From a virus, in the IMG/VR virus record IMGVR_UViG_3300044580_000244, positions 1 to 29,997 of that record: a stretch of DNA of 29,997 nucleotides; one strand, written 5' to 3'. A model generated the notes under the pieces. The model was not told where the DNA came from. It made no database searches and saw only the letters and a list, made by a program, of their open reading frames with translations. The stretch's first letter is position 1; every line of letters begins with the position of its first letter. The translations under genes and the position numbers were made by a program. Positions 10,985 through 29,997 of the stretch are shown here, one piece after another.

Positions 10985-11998
10985 TTATTCTCCTGTGTAT
11001 TCATTCCAATCTGCTGGCCAGCTCCCACCATTAGCAGATAGCCATGCAGAGGGGATAATTGTCCAAGCTGCTTTGGTGAGTAGTGGAGCTACATCTGCTT
11101 TCACCTCATCCCAATCAGGGCAGTTTTCAGTTGTGCCTGCGGTAATTATGAATGGATATGCTCCGCTCCACGTTCCAGTTGCCGCATCGTGAATTAACCG
11201 TGCATATTCTGCTGCCGTTGCAAATACCGTGCTGCCCAAGAGTTGGACGCCAAGTGAACCCGTAATATTCAGCGGATTTGTTCCATATGTCAGAGACGAG
11301 CCGATGTTGAAGAGGTACAGGTATGTTAGCTTCATCCCAGTTATGTCACCAGTGATGACAGATGAAGAGCCGAGGTCGTTGAGGGACAGGGCTGTCAGCT
11401 TCATCCCAGTTATGTCGCCAGTGATTATAGATGAGCCGATGTTGTATAAGGCCAGGTATGTCAGCTTCATCCCCGTTATGTCACCAGTGATGGCAGATGA
11501 GCCGAGGCTGGAAAGGAGCAGGTATGTTAGCTTCATCCCCGTTATGTCACCAGTGATTATAGATGAGCCGAGACTGAAGAGGCGCAGGTATGTCAGCTCC
11601 ATCCCCGTTATGTCGCCCGTGATGACAGATGAGCCGATGCTGGAGATGTATAGGTATGTCACCAGCTTGCGTTTAGGGATGGTAAAGCTTCCAGCATTCT
11701 TGAAATAAATGTCTTGATTCGTGTTTGCCGCAAGGGTTAGCGGAGTGGTAACGAAATCTCCGCTACTGCCTATTCTAATGCTTGTACCGCCAGCAGGGGT
11801 TACAGTTGTTGCTTCCGATACTCGAACACGCACGTATTTTGTGCCATCGCCAGCGGTGACTGTGAAGACGGCGGGCATATTGCCGTATCTATCCACAATG
11901 CAATGCGCTCCGAGACCGAGACCGAGACCAAGTCCGAAGCTCACTTCTTCAGTCCTTTTATGATAGGTTTTACTATCTGATAGGTTTTGCTGACCCAA
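10985..11998 (-). CDS. Tandem-repeat (21-aa LRR-like solenoid) protein, probably a tail-associated or host-interaction protein
   Basis: Six consecutive repeats of L(T)YLxLxxxGSSxITGDITGMK. The start is uncertain. The track start 11998 is TTG. GTG 11944 overlaps the upstream TGA (GTGA coupling). ATG 11878 is also possible. Confidence 0.75.
   Translation of the reverse strand: MGQQNLSDSKTYHKRTEEVSFGLGLGLGLGAHCIVDRYGNMPAVFTVTAGDGTKYVRVRVSEATTVTPAGGTSIRIGSSGDFVTTPLTLAANTNQDIYFKNAGSFTIPKRKLVTYLYISSIGSSVITGDITGMELTYLRLFSLGSSIITGDITGMKLTYLLLSSLGSSAITGDITGMKLTYLALYNIGSSIITGDITGMKLTALSLNDLGSSSVITGDITGMKLTYLYLFNIGSSLTYGTNPLNITGSLGVQLLGSTVFATAAEYARLIHDAATGTWSGAYPFIITAGTTENCPDWDEVKADVAPLLTKAAWTIIPSAWLSANGGSWPADWNEYTGE
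11285..11665 (-). repeat. About six tandem 63-bp coding repeats inside the LRR-like gene
   Basis: The + strand shows a recurring block agcttcatcccNgttatgtcRccNgtgatNNcagatgagccga... every 63 bp. Confidence 0.9.
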
Positions 11999-23707: not shown

Positions 23708-24493
23708 TCATTTTCCTACATTCTCCCAATAGTATTCTGGTTCTATCTGTATGAAATCGTGCCTGCAATTGTATTCTCTTTCTCCTGCAGTTTCAGCTTC
23801 GAAAGCGATGCGTTCCTCATCAGTGAAGAATGGTGCATTCGGAAATCTGCTGTCAGGATCCACGCCAAGACCTATTCTGCAGGCGGGACGAGTGAGGTCA
23901 TCTATAGGTCCTTGATATTCCCAGAAGAGCTCGCCTTCATATTCATCTTTATTGGCGTATTCTACTGCCTGAATGAATTCTCCTCTGCTCGTATTGAAAT
24001 AGGTCGTTGCGTATCGCTTCAGGTTATTTTCCAGCACATCCCGTATCTGCTGGATAGCATCTTCACTGTCTATGCCTGCTATTACGCTCTTCACTATTAT
24101 GTGCTGTATATTTCGCATTTCTTGTGCTGCCACGGATTGAAACTGTGTCGCATAGATAGCAGACATTCCCTGAAGCTTCTCTGCAGTCTGCATTGTGAAT
24201 GCGAGAGGCACGGCACCTTCAGGTCGGTGTTCACGCATATACTTCAGGATATCGTTCTCTTTCTCTTGTGCCGCCTGCACGAGCTCATTGAAACCGCTTT
24301 CCTGAAGCATCTGCTGAAGTGCTGCATAACTCTGATACGCCTGCTGGACATTGATATCACTGTATATCAGGATGCCATTGGTAGTCTGGAAATCGCCTAT
24401 CAGCATCTCAATTCTTTTCTGGAACGCACTTAGAACCTTATCCAGGTTTCTTTCGAACCATTCTATCTGCTCATCTAAGATTTTGTCATACAT
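23708..24493 (-). CDS. Minor head protein, Mu F / SPP1 gp7-like
   Basis: It lies directly after the portal gene (TAATG overlap). WEYQGPIDDLTRPACRIGLG matches the conserved D..tRp.c motif of this family. Confidence 0.7.
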   Translation of the reverse strand: MYDKILDEQIEWFERNLDKVLSAFQKRIEMLIGDFQTTNGILIYSDINVQQAYQSYAALQQMLQESGFNELVQAAQEKENDILKYMREHRPEGAVPLAFTMQTAEKLQGMSAIYATQFQSVAAQEMRNIQHIIVKSVIAGIDSEDAIQQIRDVLENNLKRYATTYFNTSRGEFIQAVEYANKDEYEGELFWEYQGPIDDLTRPACRIGLGVDPDSRFPNAPFFTDEERIAFEAETAGEREYNCRHDFIQIEPEYYWENVGK

Positions 24494-25884
24494 TATTCGA
24501 ACATTCCCGTGGTCAGATTAGGAGTGCGATATATCGCATTCTCGCTATCTATCTGCTTTTTTCTTTCTATGGCGCCCTGACGGTCTAAGTCCTGATTATC
24601 TTCCATTATGGCGTCTATGATGGACATTGTCCCATTCGCCAGTTTCAATGTGCGTATCTGCTCCAGCTCCATCTGATTCGGTGTTACCTGAACATCGGCA
24701 TAGTCTATGTTTATGTCTGCATCAGTAGGCAGATTGACTTTCCCGTATATCCTTTTGCAATCCATAATTAGCTGGACTAATTCTCTGATTGATTCACGAT
24801 ATACTGAGCGTTTCGCCTGATTGTGGTCTATTACGCCAGTCATTGAAAGCCTGAGCTGATAGCCTGAGCTATAGTTCGCACCACCACGAATGAAATCAGT
24901 AGAAATGCCCAGCAATGCAGCAGCGAGAGATATCTGGTCATTGATGACCTGCCAGATGCTATTGAGATTCACACCAGGATTAATGTAATACGCTTTGCCT
25001 TGCAAGGTTCCCGTTATTTTATCCTTCGGGATATTCAAGAAACGGCTCACATTCGAGGTAATGACCTGCGATTCAGGCATTCCTTCTGTCACCATAGTAG
25101 CGAAAGATTGGAAGTCTATGCCCATATTGAATGCAGTCAATTGCAAGTTCGCTGTCTCATTCGCTTTCATAATGGGATACCCACTATCAATCCAGAAACG
25201 GTTCATTGGAAGCTCAATAGAAAACCATATCACAGGAATACGCCCATAGACATTGGGAGCTTCCGTGCCAGGTATAGGCTCTATCTTTCCATTCATCAGA
25301 ATCTCTATTTCCTGATAGGTGTCCTCAGTCCAGAACGCATAGCGATTGCCTTTCTGAGCGATGAGTGTATTCTCACGGTTCAGAATAGGATATGCGAGTG
25401 CGTCTAATTGTGTCGGGTCTTTCTCATTCTGCCATACAGTCACTTTGTCTGGCGTTATGAGTTGCAAGTATACACGGTCTCGCTTTGCGTCATAATGCGG
25501 AAGCACGCCTACCTGGTGGCAAGTCTCACAGATACGGTCAATCTGTCCTAAGACCTGATAGAGCTTGCATTCATCGAGTAGCTTCGAGAATGCTTCTGCA
25601 ATTGCTGAAGTCTCATCAATGCCCTTTAGATTGATTGCGGGGTCGCTCTGGAAAAGCTTCGCCAATTGACGCACCATTGATTTCGAAAGCGGAATAGTAA
25701 CCATAAACGGCAATACATCTGTATAGGTGTTGGGATAGCGGTATCGGAGCGCTTTCTCAAGAAATGGTTCCTGAATATCGTCATAATAGCAGAGAGCCTT
25801 GTAGGCACGCTTTTTTCTACGCTCTTCATTCTTAATGAGGGCTTCTATCTGTGCGTATTGGATAAGAACTTCAGAATAGCTCAT
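24493..25884 (-). CDS. Portal protein
   Basis: 463 aa, immediately after terL. I prefer ATG 25884, which forms an ATGA overlap with the terL stop. The track start 25896 is TTG. Confidence 0.85.
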   Translation of the reverse strand: MSYSEVLIQYAQIEALIKNEERRKKRAYKALCYYDDIQEPFLEKALRYRYPNTYTDVLPFMVTIPLSKSMVRQLAKLFQSDPAINLKGIDETSAIAEAFSKLLDECKLYQVLGQIDRICETCHQVGVLPHYDAKRDRVYLQLITPDKVTVWQNEKDPTQLDALAYPILNRENTLIAQKGNRYAFWTEDTYQEIEILMNGKIEPIPGTEAPNVYGRIPVIWFSIELPMNRFWIDSGYPIMKANETANLQLTAFNMGIDFQSFATMVTEGMPESQVITSNVSRFLNIPKDKITGTLQGKAYYINPGVNLNSIWQVINDQISLAAALLGISTDFIRGGANYSSGYQLRLSMTGVIDHNQAKRSVYRESIRELVQLIMDCKRIYGKVNLPTDADINIDYADVQVTPNQMELEQIRTLKLANGTMSIIDAIMEDNQDLDRQGAIERKKQIDSENAIYRTPNLTTGMFE

Positions 25885-27125
25885 AATCGCACCCAATCCC
25901 TGTTCTGTTCTTTCTCCAGTGAATTGATCAATATCACATTTCTCAATGCGTCAGATATATGCGTGAGCATCGTTCCTGCAGGCTTCTCAATCTGCCCATA
26001 ATTGTCGGTCACCACCTGCTCCAAGTCAGCAATGAGATGCGTGCACGACGGATCAATGATTATCCTGTCGTGGTCGAATGCACCATTGGTCAGGTTCAGG
26101 CTACGACGCTGAGTGAATCCATATCTATACCGAAGTTCGAAACCTTTTCGCTGTAATATTTCCAGGTCAGAGATATCGGAGCTCGTTTTCCGTGAACCTC
26201 CAGTGGGATCAGGATAAATGATAATAGGATAGTCTCCGCCGTAATCAGCATAAATCAAGTCTGCCAGCATAAAAGTATTAGAATTCAGGACATAGTATTC
26301 ACTGAAGACCTTGTAAACATCGCCATCGAAATATCCCACACACGCAGTCATAGGATGCACATTGAAATCGACGCCTATATGCAATACAGTGCCCTTCGGA
26401 GGTTTCGGGACTTCAGCAATGTGTCGTTCTCGCTGGAATGCGTAATATGCTGCCAATGAATTGAGATTCACGAATTCGCCCTCCAGATAAGCTCGTGCCA
26501 TATTTCTGTCATAGCTCGCTAATATGTCGTCAATGTAAGATTTGCTGAGGTGGTAATTGTCATAGGTTCTTGCACGGATTAATTTCGTTCCTGGATTCGG
26601 TTTGTGCTGTAGAATTTCATAGCAGGTGGAAAATCCTTCAGGTGAGCTCACGAGATAGAATTGCGAGTCTGTGCGTCCTCTCAGTCTTTCACGGAAGCGC
26701 TTCACTATCTTTTCACCTTTCGGCATAGGTATAGAATCCAGTTCATCTACGCCTGCATCCGTGAAAGTCTCGCCAATGATTCGTTCTGGATGCTGAAGCG
26801 ATTTGATTGCGAACCGCCCGAATACGCAGGTAATCTGAAGTCCTGAAGTATTCGCAGTGAACGGGATATTGCAACTTTCCAGAAGCTCGCAGAAGGGATA
26901 GAAAAAGATATTCTTTCCCATCTCGTATGTAGGATAGCCTATGCCTATATTCGCTTTCGCATTCGCACCAGGACGGCTCATCAGGCATATCAGGGTCTTG
27001 AACAGGAATGCAACACTTTTCCCTGAACCAAGACCGCCCACAAGTCCAAGCGTGCGATCCCAAGAATTCAGGAACTCCCACTGATGCGGGAGAAAGTCTT
27101 CTTCGTGAAGTTCAATCTTCAGCAT
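25881..27125 (-). CDS. terL: Terminase large subunit
   Basis: Walker A is GGLGSGKS and Walker B is AGVDELD. A nuclease-domain acidic motif IGVDFN is present. Size is 414 aa. Confidence 0.9.
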   Translation of the reverse strand: MLKIELHEEDFLPHQWEFLNSWDRTLGLVGGLGSGKSVAFLFKTLICLMSRPGANAKANIGIGYPTYEMGKNIFFYPFCELLESCNIPFTANTSGLQITCVFGRFAIKSLQHPERIIGETFTDAGVDELDSIPMPKGEKIVKRFRERLRGRTDSQFYLVSSPEGFSTCYEILQHKPNPGTKLIRARTYDNYHLSKSYIDDILASYDRNMARAYLEGEFVNLNSLAAYYAFQRERHIAEVPKPPKGTVLHIGVDFNVHPMTACVGYFDGDVYKVFSEYYVLNSNTFMLADLIYADYGGDYPIIIYPDPTGGSRKTSSDISDLEILQRKGFELRYRYGFTQRRSLNLTNGAFDHDRIIIDPSCTHLIADLEQVVTDNYGQIEKPAGTMLTHISDALRNVILINSLEKEQNRDWVRL

Positions 27126-27489
27126 TGGGATCTGATTCCGGATCTGATTCTGCTAATTGCTTAGGTTTCAGGACTATCGTTATATCAGAAAGACGCTCAG
27201 TATCAGGGATATCCTTCTGACCGAGATATTGTTTACCGAGCCAGATAGCCATAGCCGCATTTCTATCAGCCAATCTCCATTGTTTGCGTCGTAAATCCAG
27301 CTTTCCGTTTTCTAAGCCTTTTTTGTAAGCTTCCTGAAATTCTTTGTGCCCACTGAGCGTAGATGGCGGTATACCGAACCACGCAGAGCATTCCTTGATT
27401 GTGCATTGAAGCCTTCCCAGCTTTTCAGCCTGCTCCAGATCAATCTGCGTCTTAGGTCTACCTGTTTTCTTCTTAGGTTTAGTATCCAT
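27112..27489 (-). CDS. terS: Terminase small subunit (HTH type)
   Basis: The signature is KKKTGRPKT..LEQAEKLGRLQCTIKECSAWFGIPPSTL...NAAMAIWLGKQYLGQKD. It overlaps the terL start. Confidence 0.85.
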   Translation of the reverse strand: MDTKPKKKTGRPKTQIDLEQAEKLGRLQCTIKECSAWFGIPPSTLSGHKEFQEAYKKGLENGKLDLRRKQWRLADRNAAMAIWLGKQYLGQKDIPDTERLSDITIVLKPKQLAESDPESDPNAED

Positions 27490-27513: not shown

Positions 27514-28284
27514 TCAAACATTAAAATAATCCATTTCCCTTTCAGGAAATCTGAACATTGACTCATCTCCGAACTTAGCCAAATCATTTTTAACATAGAA
27601 TTTCAGACCCAATTCACGACATAGTTTCACAGCATCCACCAGGAAAGTTTTCCAATCAATTTCTTTTTCCCACGGATGATTATTTAATTTTCCTATTTTT
27701 ATATGGTCAATAAAACCAGAAATCATTTCAATCATTTTCAGGGTCTGATCAGGAAACAAGACAGGCTCAAAACTTACCCAAGTTTTTATACCATTTTCAG
27801 AAAATATCTTCAAGGCTTCAATCCGTTCACTTCCCACAGGAGCTCCAGGCTCATATCTCTTTGAATCGCTATCGTTTAAACAAGTTAAAGTTGCACCTAC
27901 TTTGATATACTCGAAATCGCTGATAATATCAATATCCCGCAAGGCTTTCATAGGATTTTTTGTCAGTATGGAAATATGACATTGATTGTCGAACATAGCA
28001 CACAGAACTTCCCTTGTTTGACCGCTTTCGAATCCACAATAGGGATCACCCGTAAATGAAAGCAATATTTGTTTGTCTCCATTTCTTGATTTTCGGAACC
28101 GCTCACATTCTCTATATATACCCGAAACAGAACAACTGACTTCATTATGGATATAATCAGGATTAAAAGTTTTCATAAGACTTGGAACATAGCAATATAA
28201 ACATCCGTGGTCACAACCCTTGAAATAATTGAGAGCGAAAGGGCTATATTCCCTTGCTTTTCCCTTAGGTTCATAAATTTTCAT
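27514..28284 (-). CDS. Radical SAM protein, SplB / COG1533 'DNA repair photolyase'-like
   Basis: CDHGCLYC is a CxxxCxxC cluster in the context NYFKGCDHGCLYCYVPS. Downstream SFTGDPY, ILTKNP and SFEPV motifs fit that clade. RBS AAGGAGtaaacaATG. Confidence 0.75.
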   Translation of the reverse strand: MKIYEPKGKAREYSPFALNYFKGCDHGCLYCYVPSLMKTFNPDYIHNEVSCSVSGIYRECERFRKSRNGDKQILLSFTGDPYCGFESGQTREVLCAMFDNQCHISILTKNPMKALRDIDIISDFEYIKVGATLTCLNDSDSKRYEPGAPVGSERIEALKIFSENGIKTWVSFEPVLFPDQTLKMIEMISGFIDHIKIGKLNNHPWEKEIDWKTFLVDAVKLCRELGLKFYVKNDLAKFGDESMFRFPEREMDYFNV

Positions 28285-28846
28285 TGTTTACTCCTTTTAT
28301 CATTGTTGTATCAAAACACAAGTAATGTTTTCTGTCAAGAGATTTTATTGAATAATGATCAATTTTGTTAGCTAAAAGATAGGTTTCTAATACTTCTAAC
28401 GGTTTTTTCGTAAATAAGGTTCTCGCTTTTCGTATCATTTCAGGTGTAAATCCTGATTGCATCAATATAGCAGTTGGTAAGTTTCCGTAAAAGCTTTGAA
28501 TGAAAGTAACAAATACTATACCTTGATATTTTTTTTTGAAAAGTAATTGCATCTGAGCAAAAGGAATACCATAAGCATCAAGATCAACTATATCAAACCT
28601 GCCTAAGTCAATTCCAGCAAGGACTTTCAGATTATCACAAACAATATCTATTTTATCAAAATAATTTTTTTTATCGATAGATAATGTTCTTATTTTCTTG
28701 TTTGTTCTCTTTTGCACCAGATTCCAGATAGTTCCTTTTCCGGCAAAAGCATCCAAAACAATGATTTCATTCTTTTCTGGAAGATGATTAAGGCGGAGTG
28801 TCACTTTCGCTTCCAAATATGAATTATTAGTTTTGTGACTGCTCAA
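28271..28846 (-). CDS. SAM-dependent methyltransferase (Rossmann; Trm1-like DxDAYG catalytic loop)
   Basis: Motif I is IIVLDAFAGKGTIW and the motif IV-like loop is FDIVDLDAYGIP. The track start 28846 is TTG, and GTG at codon 15 is possible. It overlaps both neighbouring genes. Confidence 0.7.
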   Translation of the reverse strand: MSSHKTNNSYLEAKVTLRLNHLPEKNEIIVLDAFAGKGTIWNLVQKRTNKKIRTLSIDKKNYFDKIDIVCDNLKVLAGIDLGRFDIVDLDAYGIPFAQMQLLFKKKYQGIVFVTFIQSFYGNLPTAILMQSGFTPEMIRKARTLFTKKPLEVLETYLLANKIDHYSIKSLDRKHYLCFDTTMIKGVNNENL

Positions 28847-29354
28847 TTTTCACACCATCAATTTTCTTCAGCTCAGAAATGAGCGATTTCGCATCCAAAA
28901 CTTTGTCAAGAGGGACAGAAACGAGATAATGCACTTGCTTGATAGGCACGATTATTTGTTCTTTTTCGTCAATATCTTGGCTCATTATTTCTGGAAGGTC
29001 CAAACCCATTTCTTCGATTGAATCCAAAAAATCGCTGAATTCAGCTTCAAGAATTTCGAAGTCCCAATCGCCAGCCTGAATATTATCACGGATAATGAAC
29101 TCTCTTTTCTCTTTTTCCGTAAGTTCATCTGCACTTTTCACCCAATCGTCAGGGATTTCTTTCATTCCGAGATCACGGATGGCAAGAAGTCGCTGATTTC
29201 CTCCTAAGACTTCCATAGTATCGGGATCATATACGATTGGACGCAATGACATCATTTTCGGGAACTTTTCTATTGAGTATTTTAATTTCTCCATTTGGTC
29301 TGGAGATATCTTACGGGGATTTTTTTTATTTAATTTCAATTGCGACACTTTCAT
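28827..29354 (-). CDS. ParB/Srx N-terminal (ParB-like nuclease) domain protein
   Basis: The sequence is LKLNKKNPRKISPDQMEKLKYSIEKFPKMMSLRPIVYDP..EVLGGNQRLLAIRDLG. It is the first long gene behind promoter P3. Confidence 0.8.
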   Translation of the reverse strand: MKVSQLKLNKKNPRKISPDQMEKLKYSIEKFPKMMSLRPIVYDPDTMEVLGGNQRLLAIRDLGMKEIPDDWVKSADELTEKEKREFIIRDNIQAGDWDFEILEAEFSDFLDSIEEMGLDLPEIMSQDIDEKEQIIVPIKQVHYLVSVPLDKVLDAKSLISELKKIDGVKIEQSQN

Positions 29355-29452: not shown

Positions 29453-29480
29453 AAAATAATCAAGCCTAAAAACTTGTCAA
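29453..29480 (-). promoter_or_regulatory. Candidate promoter P3 (TTGACA-N16-TATTTT), leftward
   Basis: On the minus strand: aaaaaaaagacTTGACAagtttttaggcttgatTATTTTat. The downstream element GATTATTTTAT is identical to that of P4. Confidence 0.6.
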
Positions 29481-29513: not shown

Positions 29514-29660
29514 TTATTTTTTCTTCTTCTCAGTTTTTATGTGTTTGAACATCTCTATTTGCATCAATCGTTTCTCTGCCTCTTCTTTACTTTTGTATGT
29601 ACCCAGATTTCTCCCTGTATGGTCTTTCACGGTCCATCCTTTGTTTGTGCGAACTATCAT
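29514..29660 (-). CDS. Small conserved basic phage protein (48 aa)
   Basis: I prefer ATG 29660 (AGAGGcgtatATG). The track start 29723 lies inside the P4 -35 box. Translation: MIVRTNKGWTVKDHTGRNLGTYKSKEEAEKRLMQIEMFKHIKTEKKKK. This follows a GW.V....G...G.Y.S.EEA..RL pattern I recall from many phage genomes. Confidence 0.65.
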   Translation of the reverse strand: MIVRTNKGWTVKDHTGRNLGTYKSKEEAEKRLMQIEMFKHIKTEKKKK

Positions 29661-29695
29661 ATACGCCTCTGAAGATATTATTCTCTCTCGTAGAT

Positions 29696-29723
29696 AAAAT
29701 AATCTGGTTTTTTTGCTTGTCAA
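29696..29723 (-). promoter_or_regulatory. Candidate promoter P4 (TTGACA-N16-TATTTT), leftward
   Basis: On the minus strand: aaaaaagttcTTGACAagcaaaaaaaccagatTATTTTat. It lies about 30 nt upstream of the 48-aa gene. Confidence 0.6.
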
Positions 29724-29890: not shown

Positions 29891-29930
29891 CAAAAAATTC
29901 TTTCTTTCTTTTTCTCTTTTTATATTTTCT

Positions 29931-29997
29931 AATTCTAGTTCTAATTCTAATTCTAATTCTAATTCTAATTCTAATTCTAATTCTAATTCTAATTCTA
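29931..29997. repeat. Hexanucleotide tandem array: AATTCT, AGTTCT, (AATTCT)x9 plus a partial unit; same sequence and orientation as 1..55
   Basis: Read directly. 29943..29997 is identical to 1..55. Confidence 0.97.

Follow-up and report, generated by a model that had tools for sequence, protein, structure and literature searches.

A mobile phage cassette that links a ParB-domain protein, an unclassified methyltransferase and a radical-SAM enzyme and may act on phage DNA

To our knowledge, DNA is the substrate of only two radical S-adenosylmethionine (radical-SAM) enzymes: one, spore photoproduct lyase (SPL), repairs it, and the other, gp53 of phage M6, takes part in its hypermodification. Here we describe a locus that may encode another enzyme of this kind. 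It lies in 29,997 nucleotides (nt) of viral DNA (IMG/VR record IMGVR_UViG_3300044580_000244, positions 1 to 29,997; we call this whole stretch the window), where genes for a ParB-domain protein, a methyltransferase of 191 amino acids (aa), and a radical-SAM protein are followed, in that order, by a terS-like gene (small terminase subunit), terL (large terminase subunit), and the portal gene. The reading that we favor, although tentatively, is that the trio is a conserved, horizontally mobile SAM-dependent cassette that would target the DNA of the phage itself shortly before packaging.

M6 gp53 isomerizes N-alpha-glycinyl-thymidine in DNA and has been called the first radical-SAM enzyme that installs a DNA modification; it acts post-replicatively, and its substrate is made from 5-hydroxymethyldeoxyuridine (5-hmdU) via a kinase/aGPT-Pplase pathway (PMC8989533). 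Genes of the COG1533 "SplB" group are SOS-regulated in several phyla, and a DNA-related role has been inferred for the clade (PMC8565304). Also, DUF5131, SPL, and MJ0683-like proteins share one RadicalSAM.org megacluster (PMC9477430). Two known gene arrangements resemble the trio. In the ParB-fused orphan methylases that phages and plasmids carry (PHROG 498; ParB_N with PF01555), a ParB domain is joined to a DNA methylase. In TcmP/DUF5131 pairs (TIGR04474 and PF07505), as in the trio, a methyltransferase-like protein is paired with a radical-SAM-type enzyme from the neighborhood of DUF5131 and COG1533. The cassette is related in kind to both, and it contains an unclassified methyltransferase family and an uncharacterized radical step that would be directed at DNA. 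We found no paper that describes this module, nor one that describes the function of TcmP or DUF5131.

The ParB/Srx-domain gene (28827-29354, 175 aa), the methyltransferase gene (28271-28846, 191 aa, TTG start), and the radical-SAM gene (27514-28284, 256 aa) are all on the minus strand and overlap by 20 nt (28827-28846) and 14 nt (28271-28284). A preliminary description of this DNA, made from its letters alone, had given these coordinates and overlaps, had placed the trio at the head of the packaging arm, directly upstream of terS and terL, and had pointed to the motifs VLDAFAGKG, DIVDLDAYG, and CDHGCLYC; all of this holds, and the three motifs are in the translations. The genes are real rather than chance open reading frames (ORFs): the methyltransferase has 43 homologs by a word-indexed search and its family has 1,117 clusters at 50% identity by an exhaustive profile search, the radical-SAM protein has 3,370 homologs, and both families have conserved columns.

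The linkage of these genes is strongly conserved. Among 80 viral loci from IMG/VR that were collected with the methyltransferase as the seed, 74 have a radical-SAM gene, which is within 150 nt in 66 of the 80 (in the same direction in 42 and convergent in 24). Directly upstream of the methyltransferase, 70 loci have a ParB gene, and the remainder mostly have divergent ParB-like genes. In two loci (L012 and L058), a protein with DUF5131 (PF07505) replaces the radical-SAM protein (2e-58 and 1.4e-77), so a true three-Cys partner is found in 2/80 loci and a related radical-SAM protein with a CX3CX2C cluster in 74/80. The preliminary description had named a lack of conserved linkage between the radical-SAM and methyltransferase genes as a reason to give up the idea of a module; because the linkage is so strongly conserved, this objection falls away. 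Nor is the linkage just inherited synteny, because the orientation of the radical-SAM gene flips between loci, protein identities across linked loci fall to 23-40%, and at least three families of terminase follow. (In 85 loci the radical-SAM gene is co-directional and is followed by at least one ORF of 330 aa or more; the first such ORF is mostly TerL, and the Pfam families are Terminase_3 in 42, Terminase_6N in 39, and GpA in 8-9.) Homologs of terS come after the radical-SAM gene in related loci. The cassette is mobile among unrelated phages, and its position ahead of the packaging genes is kept.

A second set of 80 loci was collected with the radical-SAM protein as the seed. The small methyltransferase is present in 48 of these, and an N6/N4-type DNA methylase is present in 16 (fused to ParB in 13 of the 16). 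Another nine loci have no methylase nearby despite room for one, and seven could not be judged, so that 64 of the 73 judgeable loci have a methylase of either type. The ParB-N6_N4_Mtase fusions take the same position in the genome, with an orthologous radical-SAM gene and terS/terL directly downstream. Radical-SAM proteins from these loci are up to 81% identical to those that are paired with the small methyltransferase, and radical-SAM proteins without any methylase partner are up to 82% identical to them. Within the cassette, the radical-SAM gene stays constant, and its usual companion is a DNA methylase whose type can be exchanged. As the types of methylase are swapped, the ParB protein together with the small enzyme appears to take the part that ParB-fused DNA methylases of the ordinary kind play elsewhere. 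These combinations do not agree with a pathway that needs all three enzymes and centers on an atypical methyltransferase, as was first envisaged: a better description is a ParB-guided DNA methylase that may be of one type or another, with a radical-SAM enzyme of the SPL/gp53 clade as the constant part.

The 20-nt overlap between the ParB and methyltransferase genes is contingent on the start codon, as we take the methyltransferase to start with the TTG at 28846. This is the sole start that retains the N-terminal KTNNSY that is conserved among the homologs. Database calls for near-identical methyltransferases are 10-13 residues shorter (P0001, 181 aa; P0002, 178 aa). The N-terminus of P0002, which is the shorter call that we inspected, corresponds to residue 11 of the window's protein, or the next TTG on the DNA, and a start there would give a 10-nt gap to the ParB gene instead of an overlap. 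Overlaps of 14, 20, 26, or 32 nt, in one relative frame, are found in 47 of 64 related loci, so the coupling of ParB and methyltransferase is a conserved feature. The methyltransferase/radical-SAM junction varies across loci, and a 4-nt overlap and a 39-nt gap are its most frequent forms. As side observations at the first junction, the ParB partners end in a conserved (I/V)E(Y)EQ(S/G)xN and stop codon that overlap the methyltransferase start (28827-28846 and equivalents in loci L001-L080), and the relative frame is maintained though the loci have only 40-48% protein identity. We considered a programmed frameshift that would join ParB to the methyltransferase at the overlap and dropped the idea, as we noticed no slippery site there.

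The ParB protein consists of a ParB N-terminal domain (residues 1 to ~125, with a GGNQR motif) and a small C-terminal domain that ends in KIEQSQN before the stop codon. The ParB domain that had been predicted is confirmed by PHROG 620 (4.5e-24) and PHROG 498 (2.9e-27, to the N-terminal part of a "DNA methyltransferase" model of ParB-DNA methylases), and these scores, along with that to the N-terminus of PADLOC's MTase_II (4e-11), place the protein in the ParB/Srx superfamily. The match to Pfam's ParB_N (PF02195) is at 2.4e-4, with 21.5 bits, under the gathering score of 26.3. PADLOC gave no membership in a defense system. Residues 1-123 are 43-50% identical to the homologous domain of the ParB-N6_N4_Mtase fusions that adjoin orthologous radical-SAM genes. 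However, the window's ParB is encoded separately and carries a small C-terminal domain of its own, and while the fusions carry a beta-class enzyme with DPPY/F, its partner is an unrelated-looking 191-aa gamma-type core with DLDAYG.

That 191-aa protein has no match in Pfam, PHROG, NCBIfam, or PDB sequences, and a profile search of PDB sequences with its family gave nothing meaningful. Four observations identify it as a class I SAM-dependent methyltransferase by fold. The AF2 model (pLDDT 79.6, pTM 0.78) is a single Rossmann domain with a short helical insert; Foldseek gave 95 matches in the PDB at E ≤ 1e-3, and those listed are all class-I methyltransferases; motif I (VLDAFAGKG, D32-x3-G36-x-G38) is at least 90% conserved in the family alignment; and position 58 is acidic (D/E) in the sequences displayed. 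A motif IV-like loop, D88-L-D90-A-Y92-G93, is invariant or nearly so, as is D71-N72, and residues N72, D88, L89, D90, Y92, Q98, and T114 are invariant across the 43 homologs. The preliminary description had called this protein a Rossmann-fold methyltransferase and not a standard Dam or N4-cytosine enzyme, and we agree. N6_N4_Mtase (PF01555) matches just one of the 43 relatives (E 0.11) and not the window's protein, Dam-type families are absent among the listed matches of these relatives, and the loop is DLDAYG rather than DPPY or NPPY.

The resemblance to the tRNA (guanine-N2) dimethyltransferase Trm1 that had been noted for the loop is genuine, but the protein is not a Trm1. In its favor, motif I and a D-x-D-(P/A)-(F/Y)-G loop come in the same order; Trm1 of A. 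aeolicus (3axs) ranks second in Foldseek, where TM scores are only ~0.5; and Pfam's TRM (PF02005) and TIGR00308 weakly match seven and six, respectively, of the 43 relatives (the best E for TRM is 0.0059, below the gathering score). In contrast, neither model matches the window's protein, which is half as long (191 vs. ~380 aa), lacks the C-terminal tRNA-binding domains, and has DNA-associated partners. TIGR04474 (TcmP) matches one of the 43 relatives, at E 0.16, which falls short of its 53-bit cut-off. Thus, the 191-aa protein is a real methyltransferase-fold protein of an unclassified family, Trm1-like in its motif logic and, as judged by the hidden Markov models (HMMs) of those families, outside Trm1, TcmP, and the standard DNA methylases.

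The family is nearly confined to viral and metagenomic contigs. In 185,579 species genomes it has only 12 matches, all in metagenome-assembled genomes (MAGs), and only one GenBank virus, Dulem virus 36, has the trio (the middle gene is labeled "hypothetical protein" there). Some members are fused to other domains: P0232 is a fusion with ParB, and P0174 has an N-terminal HNH_3 domain (1.9e-16). These fusions point to DNA as the substrate of the methyltransferase. Separately, we noticed by eye only N-terminal HNH-like motifs fused to the methyltransferase in P0179, P0240, and P0285. We also considered P0313 as a Rosetta-stone fusion of methyltransferase and radical-SAM protein, but this single case is probably a deletion or a chimera, because it lacks both the invariant N-terminus of the radical-SAM protein and the C-terminus of the methyltransferase.

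The third protein belongs to the radical-SAM superfamily (Pfam PF04055, 3.4e-13, 50.5 bits vs. a gathering cut-off of 29.5). Its cluster motif is C24-x3-C28-x2-C31, in the context GCDHGCLYCY, and these three cysteines are invariant in 122 family sequences. It also matches PHROG 13321, whose function is unknown (6.6e-24), and, weakly, PHROG 9252, "DNA repair photolyase" (1.6e-4). The protein had been placed in the SplB/COG1533 clade, which stands in so far as its closest named relatives are the COG1533-type families PA0069 (NF033668, 3.5e-17), Rv2578c (NF038135, 9e-11), and rSAM_mob_pairB, or "mobile pair B", of NCBIfam (1.4e-12). But all of these scores are far under the family cut-offs (62.4 bits vs. 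360 for PA0069 and 41.4 bits vs. 430 for Rv2578c), and the protein is not an SPL by HMM: against TIGR03886 it reaches E 0.014 and 14.5 bits, where the equivalog cut-off is 437.55. Similarly, a search of PDB sequences with the radical-SAM profile returned no SPL and nothing meaningful. It shares with SPL and the SplB-like proteins of COG1533 a CxxxCxYCY cluster context and a DPY motif, but it is ~90-100 aa shorter (256 aa vs. 340 for SPL) and its family appears to have no conserved equivalent of the catalytic fourth cysteine. (The sole cysteine outside the cluster, C83, was rejected as an SPL-like catalytic residue, as this position is C in 68 of the 122 family members and S, N, Q, or H in 47.) The AF2 model (pLDDT 95.7) matches radical-SAM cores generally in Foldseek. 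The top matches are the peptide-modifying enzymes SuiB and SkfB, and SPL (4fhc) is the best match outside the enzymes of RiPPs, peptides that are made by ribosomes and modified after translation (TMq 0.64, 11% identity, with SuiB scoring higher). The protein has no SPASM or twitch domain, and there is no precursor-peptide gene.

The core of the protein is homologous to that of M6 gp53. When the radical-SAM family profile was aligned to gp53 with hhalign, the probability was 95.9% (E 5e-9, 26% identity over 152 columns), and the alignment spans the cluster motif as well as FT-DP(Y/F), PGA, and (E/N)PV motifs. Like the window's protein, gp53 is a phage-encoded, SPL-like radical-SAM enzyme. It differs in that it has 480 aa, with extra N- and C-terminal regions, and in that it has no ParB or methyltransferase partner. 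Bacteroidales phages and Acidianus viruses have radical-SAM genes too (27-30% identity), which we treated as a different subfamily; we set the Bacteroidales phage genes apart because, in the two regions examined, they are beside SSB and have no adjacent methylase.

The preliminary description had also suggested a comparison to TcmP and its three-Cys partner, and this lead was useful in a loose sense. The true DUF5131 proteins of L012 and L058 do pair with the window's methyltransferase family, and homologs that are 52-55% identical to the window's radical-SAM protein carry precomputed PF07505 matches; the window's protein itself has no match to DUF5131 at E ≤ 0.1. TcmP and the window's methyltransferase have in common a motif I of the form (V/I)xD(A/G)FAGxG and a (D/N)LDxxG...TFxIxS segment. 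In hhalign of the two families, for which a TcmP alignment was built from the pSymA protein, the region from motif IV to beta-5 is collinear, without statistical support, and at a probability of 0.6% we do not claim homology to TcmP. TcmP is also larger (~415 aa), and many of its homologs have a precomputed match to PF22560 (a GMT-like winged helix-turn-helix domain, according to UniRef).

When we sought TcmP beside DUF5131 in genomes and plasmids, we met ORFs that resemble C5- and N6-methylases instead: the DUF5131 genes of plasmid and bacterial or MAG contigs repeatedly adjoin DNA methylases. The neighbor is an annotated DNA cytosine methyltransferase on one plasmid (L170 3001-5868) and looks like a C5-cytosine or N6-adenine methylase by eye at three other loci (L174 867-1955, L176 4181-5038, and L179 3941-5575). 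On pSymA of S. meliloti (L181 9221-11322), a DUF5131-like gene, which also matches "radical SAM mobile pair protein A" (5.8e-20), adjoins a genuine TcmP (TIGR04474, 215.9 bits, 9e-64). This pair is near the gene for the anti-phage helicase Hna (PMC12445080). Thus, the cellular cousins of the pair are in a defense context, in bacteria, and not in the packaging arms of phages.

In the closest clade (L002-L009, 62-64% identity), a gene for the SAM synthetase MetK (314-325 aa) comes directly after the radical-SAM gene and precedes terS (L002 7337-8296, and likewise in L003-L009). These proteins match MetK from the PDB at ~1e-54 and TIGR01034 at 4.6e-73, which is below its cut-off. The window phage has no MetK gene. 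Small genes resembling AdoMet decarboxylase (PF02675) were seen at two other loci (L144 3635-3931 at 4.9e-19 and L154 690-1034 at 1.5e-13), between an N6/N4-type methylase (ParB-fused in L144) and the radical-SAM gene; with MetK, this makes two kinds of SAM-metabolism gene that the cassette has recruited. Another side observation is a conserved protein of ~200-230 aa, with the motifs YRRAFSE ... SYH..T.G..D..SFL ... STWCMA.ED and no Pfam match. It comes after the methyltransferase at a locus that has no radical-SAM gene (L047 6561-7247) and after the radical-SAM gene elsewhere (L097 1757-2359 and L140 1258-1920).

How might the cassette work? We propose that the ParB protein and the 191-aa enzyme would correspond to the common orphan DNA methyltransferases with a fused ParB, split into two proteins. 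ParB would supply DNA binding and targeting, and the small enzyme, which has no target-recognition domain of its own, would supply a gamma-type catalytic core (of the Trm1/amino-methyltransferase type) and methylate a DNA base at an exocyclic nitrogen, probably as a protection from restriction. We have moderate confidence that the two form such a split, ParB-targeted DNA N-methyltransferase. Clade membership and context suggest, also with moderate confidence, that the radical-SAM enzyme acts on DNA. There it would perform a second, radical-initiated reaction; one possible step is the abstraction of hydrogen from a methyl group on a base. We have a weak preference for base modification over lesion repair as the outcome of this step, because of the precedent of gp53, the recruitment of SAM synthetase, the failure to score as an SPL, and MAG lineages that, from their names, we take to be mostly anaerobic.

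Several points weigh against the proposal that the trio is one cassette acting on phage DNA. We found no 5-hmdU pathway among the window genes that were scanned (10 ORFs of the plus-strand arm), so the substrate of gp53 is unlikely to be available here. The nearest sequence relatives of the methyltransferase, weak as they are, are tRNA enzymes of the Trm1 family. The site just upstream of terS is a frequent hot-spot for accessory genes, which inflates the apparent linkage to packaging. Methylase families are swapped between loci, and nine radical-SAM genes have no methylase nearby, which argues that the radical reaction needs no particular product of methylation. With partners that are exchanged so freely, and a radical-SAM gene that can occur by itself, the methylation and the radical reaction may be independent chemistries whose genes are merely co-located. 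Finally, repair of the SPL type stays a serious rival.

If the radical-SAM protein is a DNA-repair enzyme, it might reverse lesions as SPL does, or undo alkylation or other damage by a route that needs no oxygen; its targets might include off-target lesions from the neighboring methylase. The ParB protein and the methyltransferase would then serve as an orphan methylase of the usual protective kind, encoded next to the repair gene but not part of one pathway. This would fit with radical-SAM proteins that are up to 81-82% identical although their methylase is of another type or missing, with DUF5131 relatives that adjoin ORFs resembling chemically unrelated C5 and N6 DNA methylases, with the SOS regulation of cellular COG1533 "SplB" genes (PMC8565304), and with the structural match to SPL (TM 0.64). 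We consider it doubtful because the protein fails the SPL HMM (14.5 bits vs. 437.55), the profile search of PDB sequences did not find SPL, the protein is shorter (256 vs. 340 aa), and C83, its candidate for the fourth cysteine, is not conserved. Also, the MAG contigs with the family are, by the lineages in their record titles, mostly from what we take to be anaerobic organisms, in which UV lesions would be rare. SPL regenerates SAM, while an adjacent SAM synthetase suggests that SAM is used stoichiometrically. Last, M6 gp53, the phage relative that has been characterized, serves in modification (PMC8989533). On the side of modification, the most specific form of our proposal is that the cassette writes an undescribed DNA base modification, by ParB-guided N-methylation and then elaboration of the methyl by the radical-SAM enzyme. 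Hydrogen would be taken from that N-methyl, or from the methyl of thymine or 5-methylcytosine, in a DNA version of the order in which Trm5 and then TYW1 act. Such a route would proceed without the 5-hmdU precursor pathway that is used by all known thymidine hypermodifications, and the bacterial TcmP-DUF5131 pairs would be cellular cousins of the same chemistry. This specific form seems unlikely, and we rank it below repair.

We consider three other explanations to be less likely than either modification or repair. TYW1 acts on an N-methyl group that is put in place by Trm5, and the methyltransferase and radical-SAM enzyme could modify RNA, such as host or phage tRNA, by the same logic. The only family-level matches of the methyltransferase's relatives are indeed to Trm1 models, and 3axs is second in Foldseek; but the domains that are fused to the methyltransferase or coupled with it, ParB and HNH, are DNA-associated, N6_N4 DNA methylases replace the enzyme in the same slot, it lacks the tRNA-binding C-terminus of Trm1 (191 vs. 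~380 aa), the phage encodes no tRNA, and the characterized relatives of the radical-SAM protein act on DNA, so a role in RNA seems very unlikely. Lower still we place a role in packaging itself, in which ParB or HNH proteins with methylation, or the radical reaction, would mark or process a pac or cos site or the concatemer for terminase. Although the radical-SAM gene is immediately upstream of terS/terL across several terminase families, and HNH and ParB-like proteins are recurrent neighbors of terminases, the radical-SAM gene is on the opposite strand in 24 of the 66 adjacent cases, the DUF5131 and TcmP relatives are found in plasmids and bacterial defense islands without terminase, and we know of no packaging mechanism that requires radical chemistry. 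We see just as little chance of a small-molecule or protein substrate for the radical-SAM enzyme (as in anti-defense or in manipulating the SAM pool), with shared use of SAM as its only tie to the methylase. SAM-metabolism genes do join the cassette (MetK in L002-L009 and the decarboxylase-like genes of L144 and L154), and SuiB and SkfB, the top structural matches, modify peptides. However, neither a SPASM or twitch domain nor a precursor-peptide gene is present, and by sequence the protein's affinities are to the COG1533/gp53/DUF5131 clade.

An enzyme of the gp53/SPL clade is linked to DNA methylases in hundreds of uncultured phages, which makes the cassette a concrete, clonable candidate for a new oxygen-independent DNA chemistry or a new kind of DNA repair. 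The cassette also defines an unannotated methyltransferase family of ~1,100 clusters, without a Pfam, PHROG, or NCBIfam model, as a stand-in for ParB-fused DNA methylases, and it gives the orphan families DUF5131, TcmP, and "radical SAM mobile pair" a testable context.

The genes that follow the trio are also on the minus strand. The terS candidate (27112-27489) matches PHROG 309 at 1.7e-5; terL (25881-27125) matches Pfam's Terminase_6N at 2.2e-8 and PHROG 2 at 7.5e-27; and the portal gene (24493-25896) matches PHROG 64 at 1.1e-8. Upstream of the ParB start, a consensus scan found a sigma-70-like promoter candidate on the same strand (TTGACA-16-TATTTT, 29453-29480). The label "P3" that this promoter had been given is unconfirmed, because the number of promoter-like sites in the region is not clearly above the expectation from shuffled sequences (16 vs. 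10.4 ± 3.4). By inspection, AAGGGG ahead of the ParB gene is a possible ribosome-binding site and AAGGAG ahead of the radical-SAM gene is a likely one. Just upstream of the trio is a 69-aa ORF (29514-29723, minus strand) with weak matches to PHROG 2859 and 3684, whose functions are unknown, and it is preceded by a second TTGACA-16-TATTTT site (29723-29696).

A hexamer microsatellite, (TTCTAA)n with occasional TTCTAG units, is present at both ends of the window (3-~60 and ~29927-29997). As both ends carry the same array, the window is probably a complete phage assembly of ~30 kb with two divergent arms, broken inside the array, which is in the divergent region that separates the two transcription arms. 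The trio heads the arm with the packaging and structural genes. Where the other (plus-strand) arm was scanned (10 ORFs), we found a replisome organizer, a DnaC-like loader, RusA, RecT, or no match. The window phage encodes no tRNA genes, and megablast against 50,697 phage records found no near-identical phages. A radical-SAM gene identical to the window's is present in IMG/VR contig 3300044606_000052. Near the end of the structural arm, a 337-aa ORF (10985-11998, minus strand) contains 66-nt tandem repeats (11229-11693), with ~5-7 units and 62-81% identity over a 132-nt double unit.

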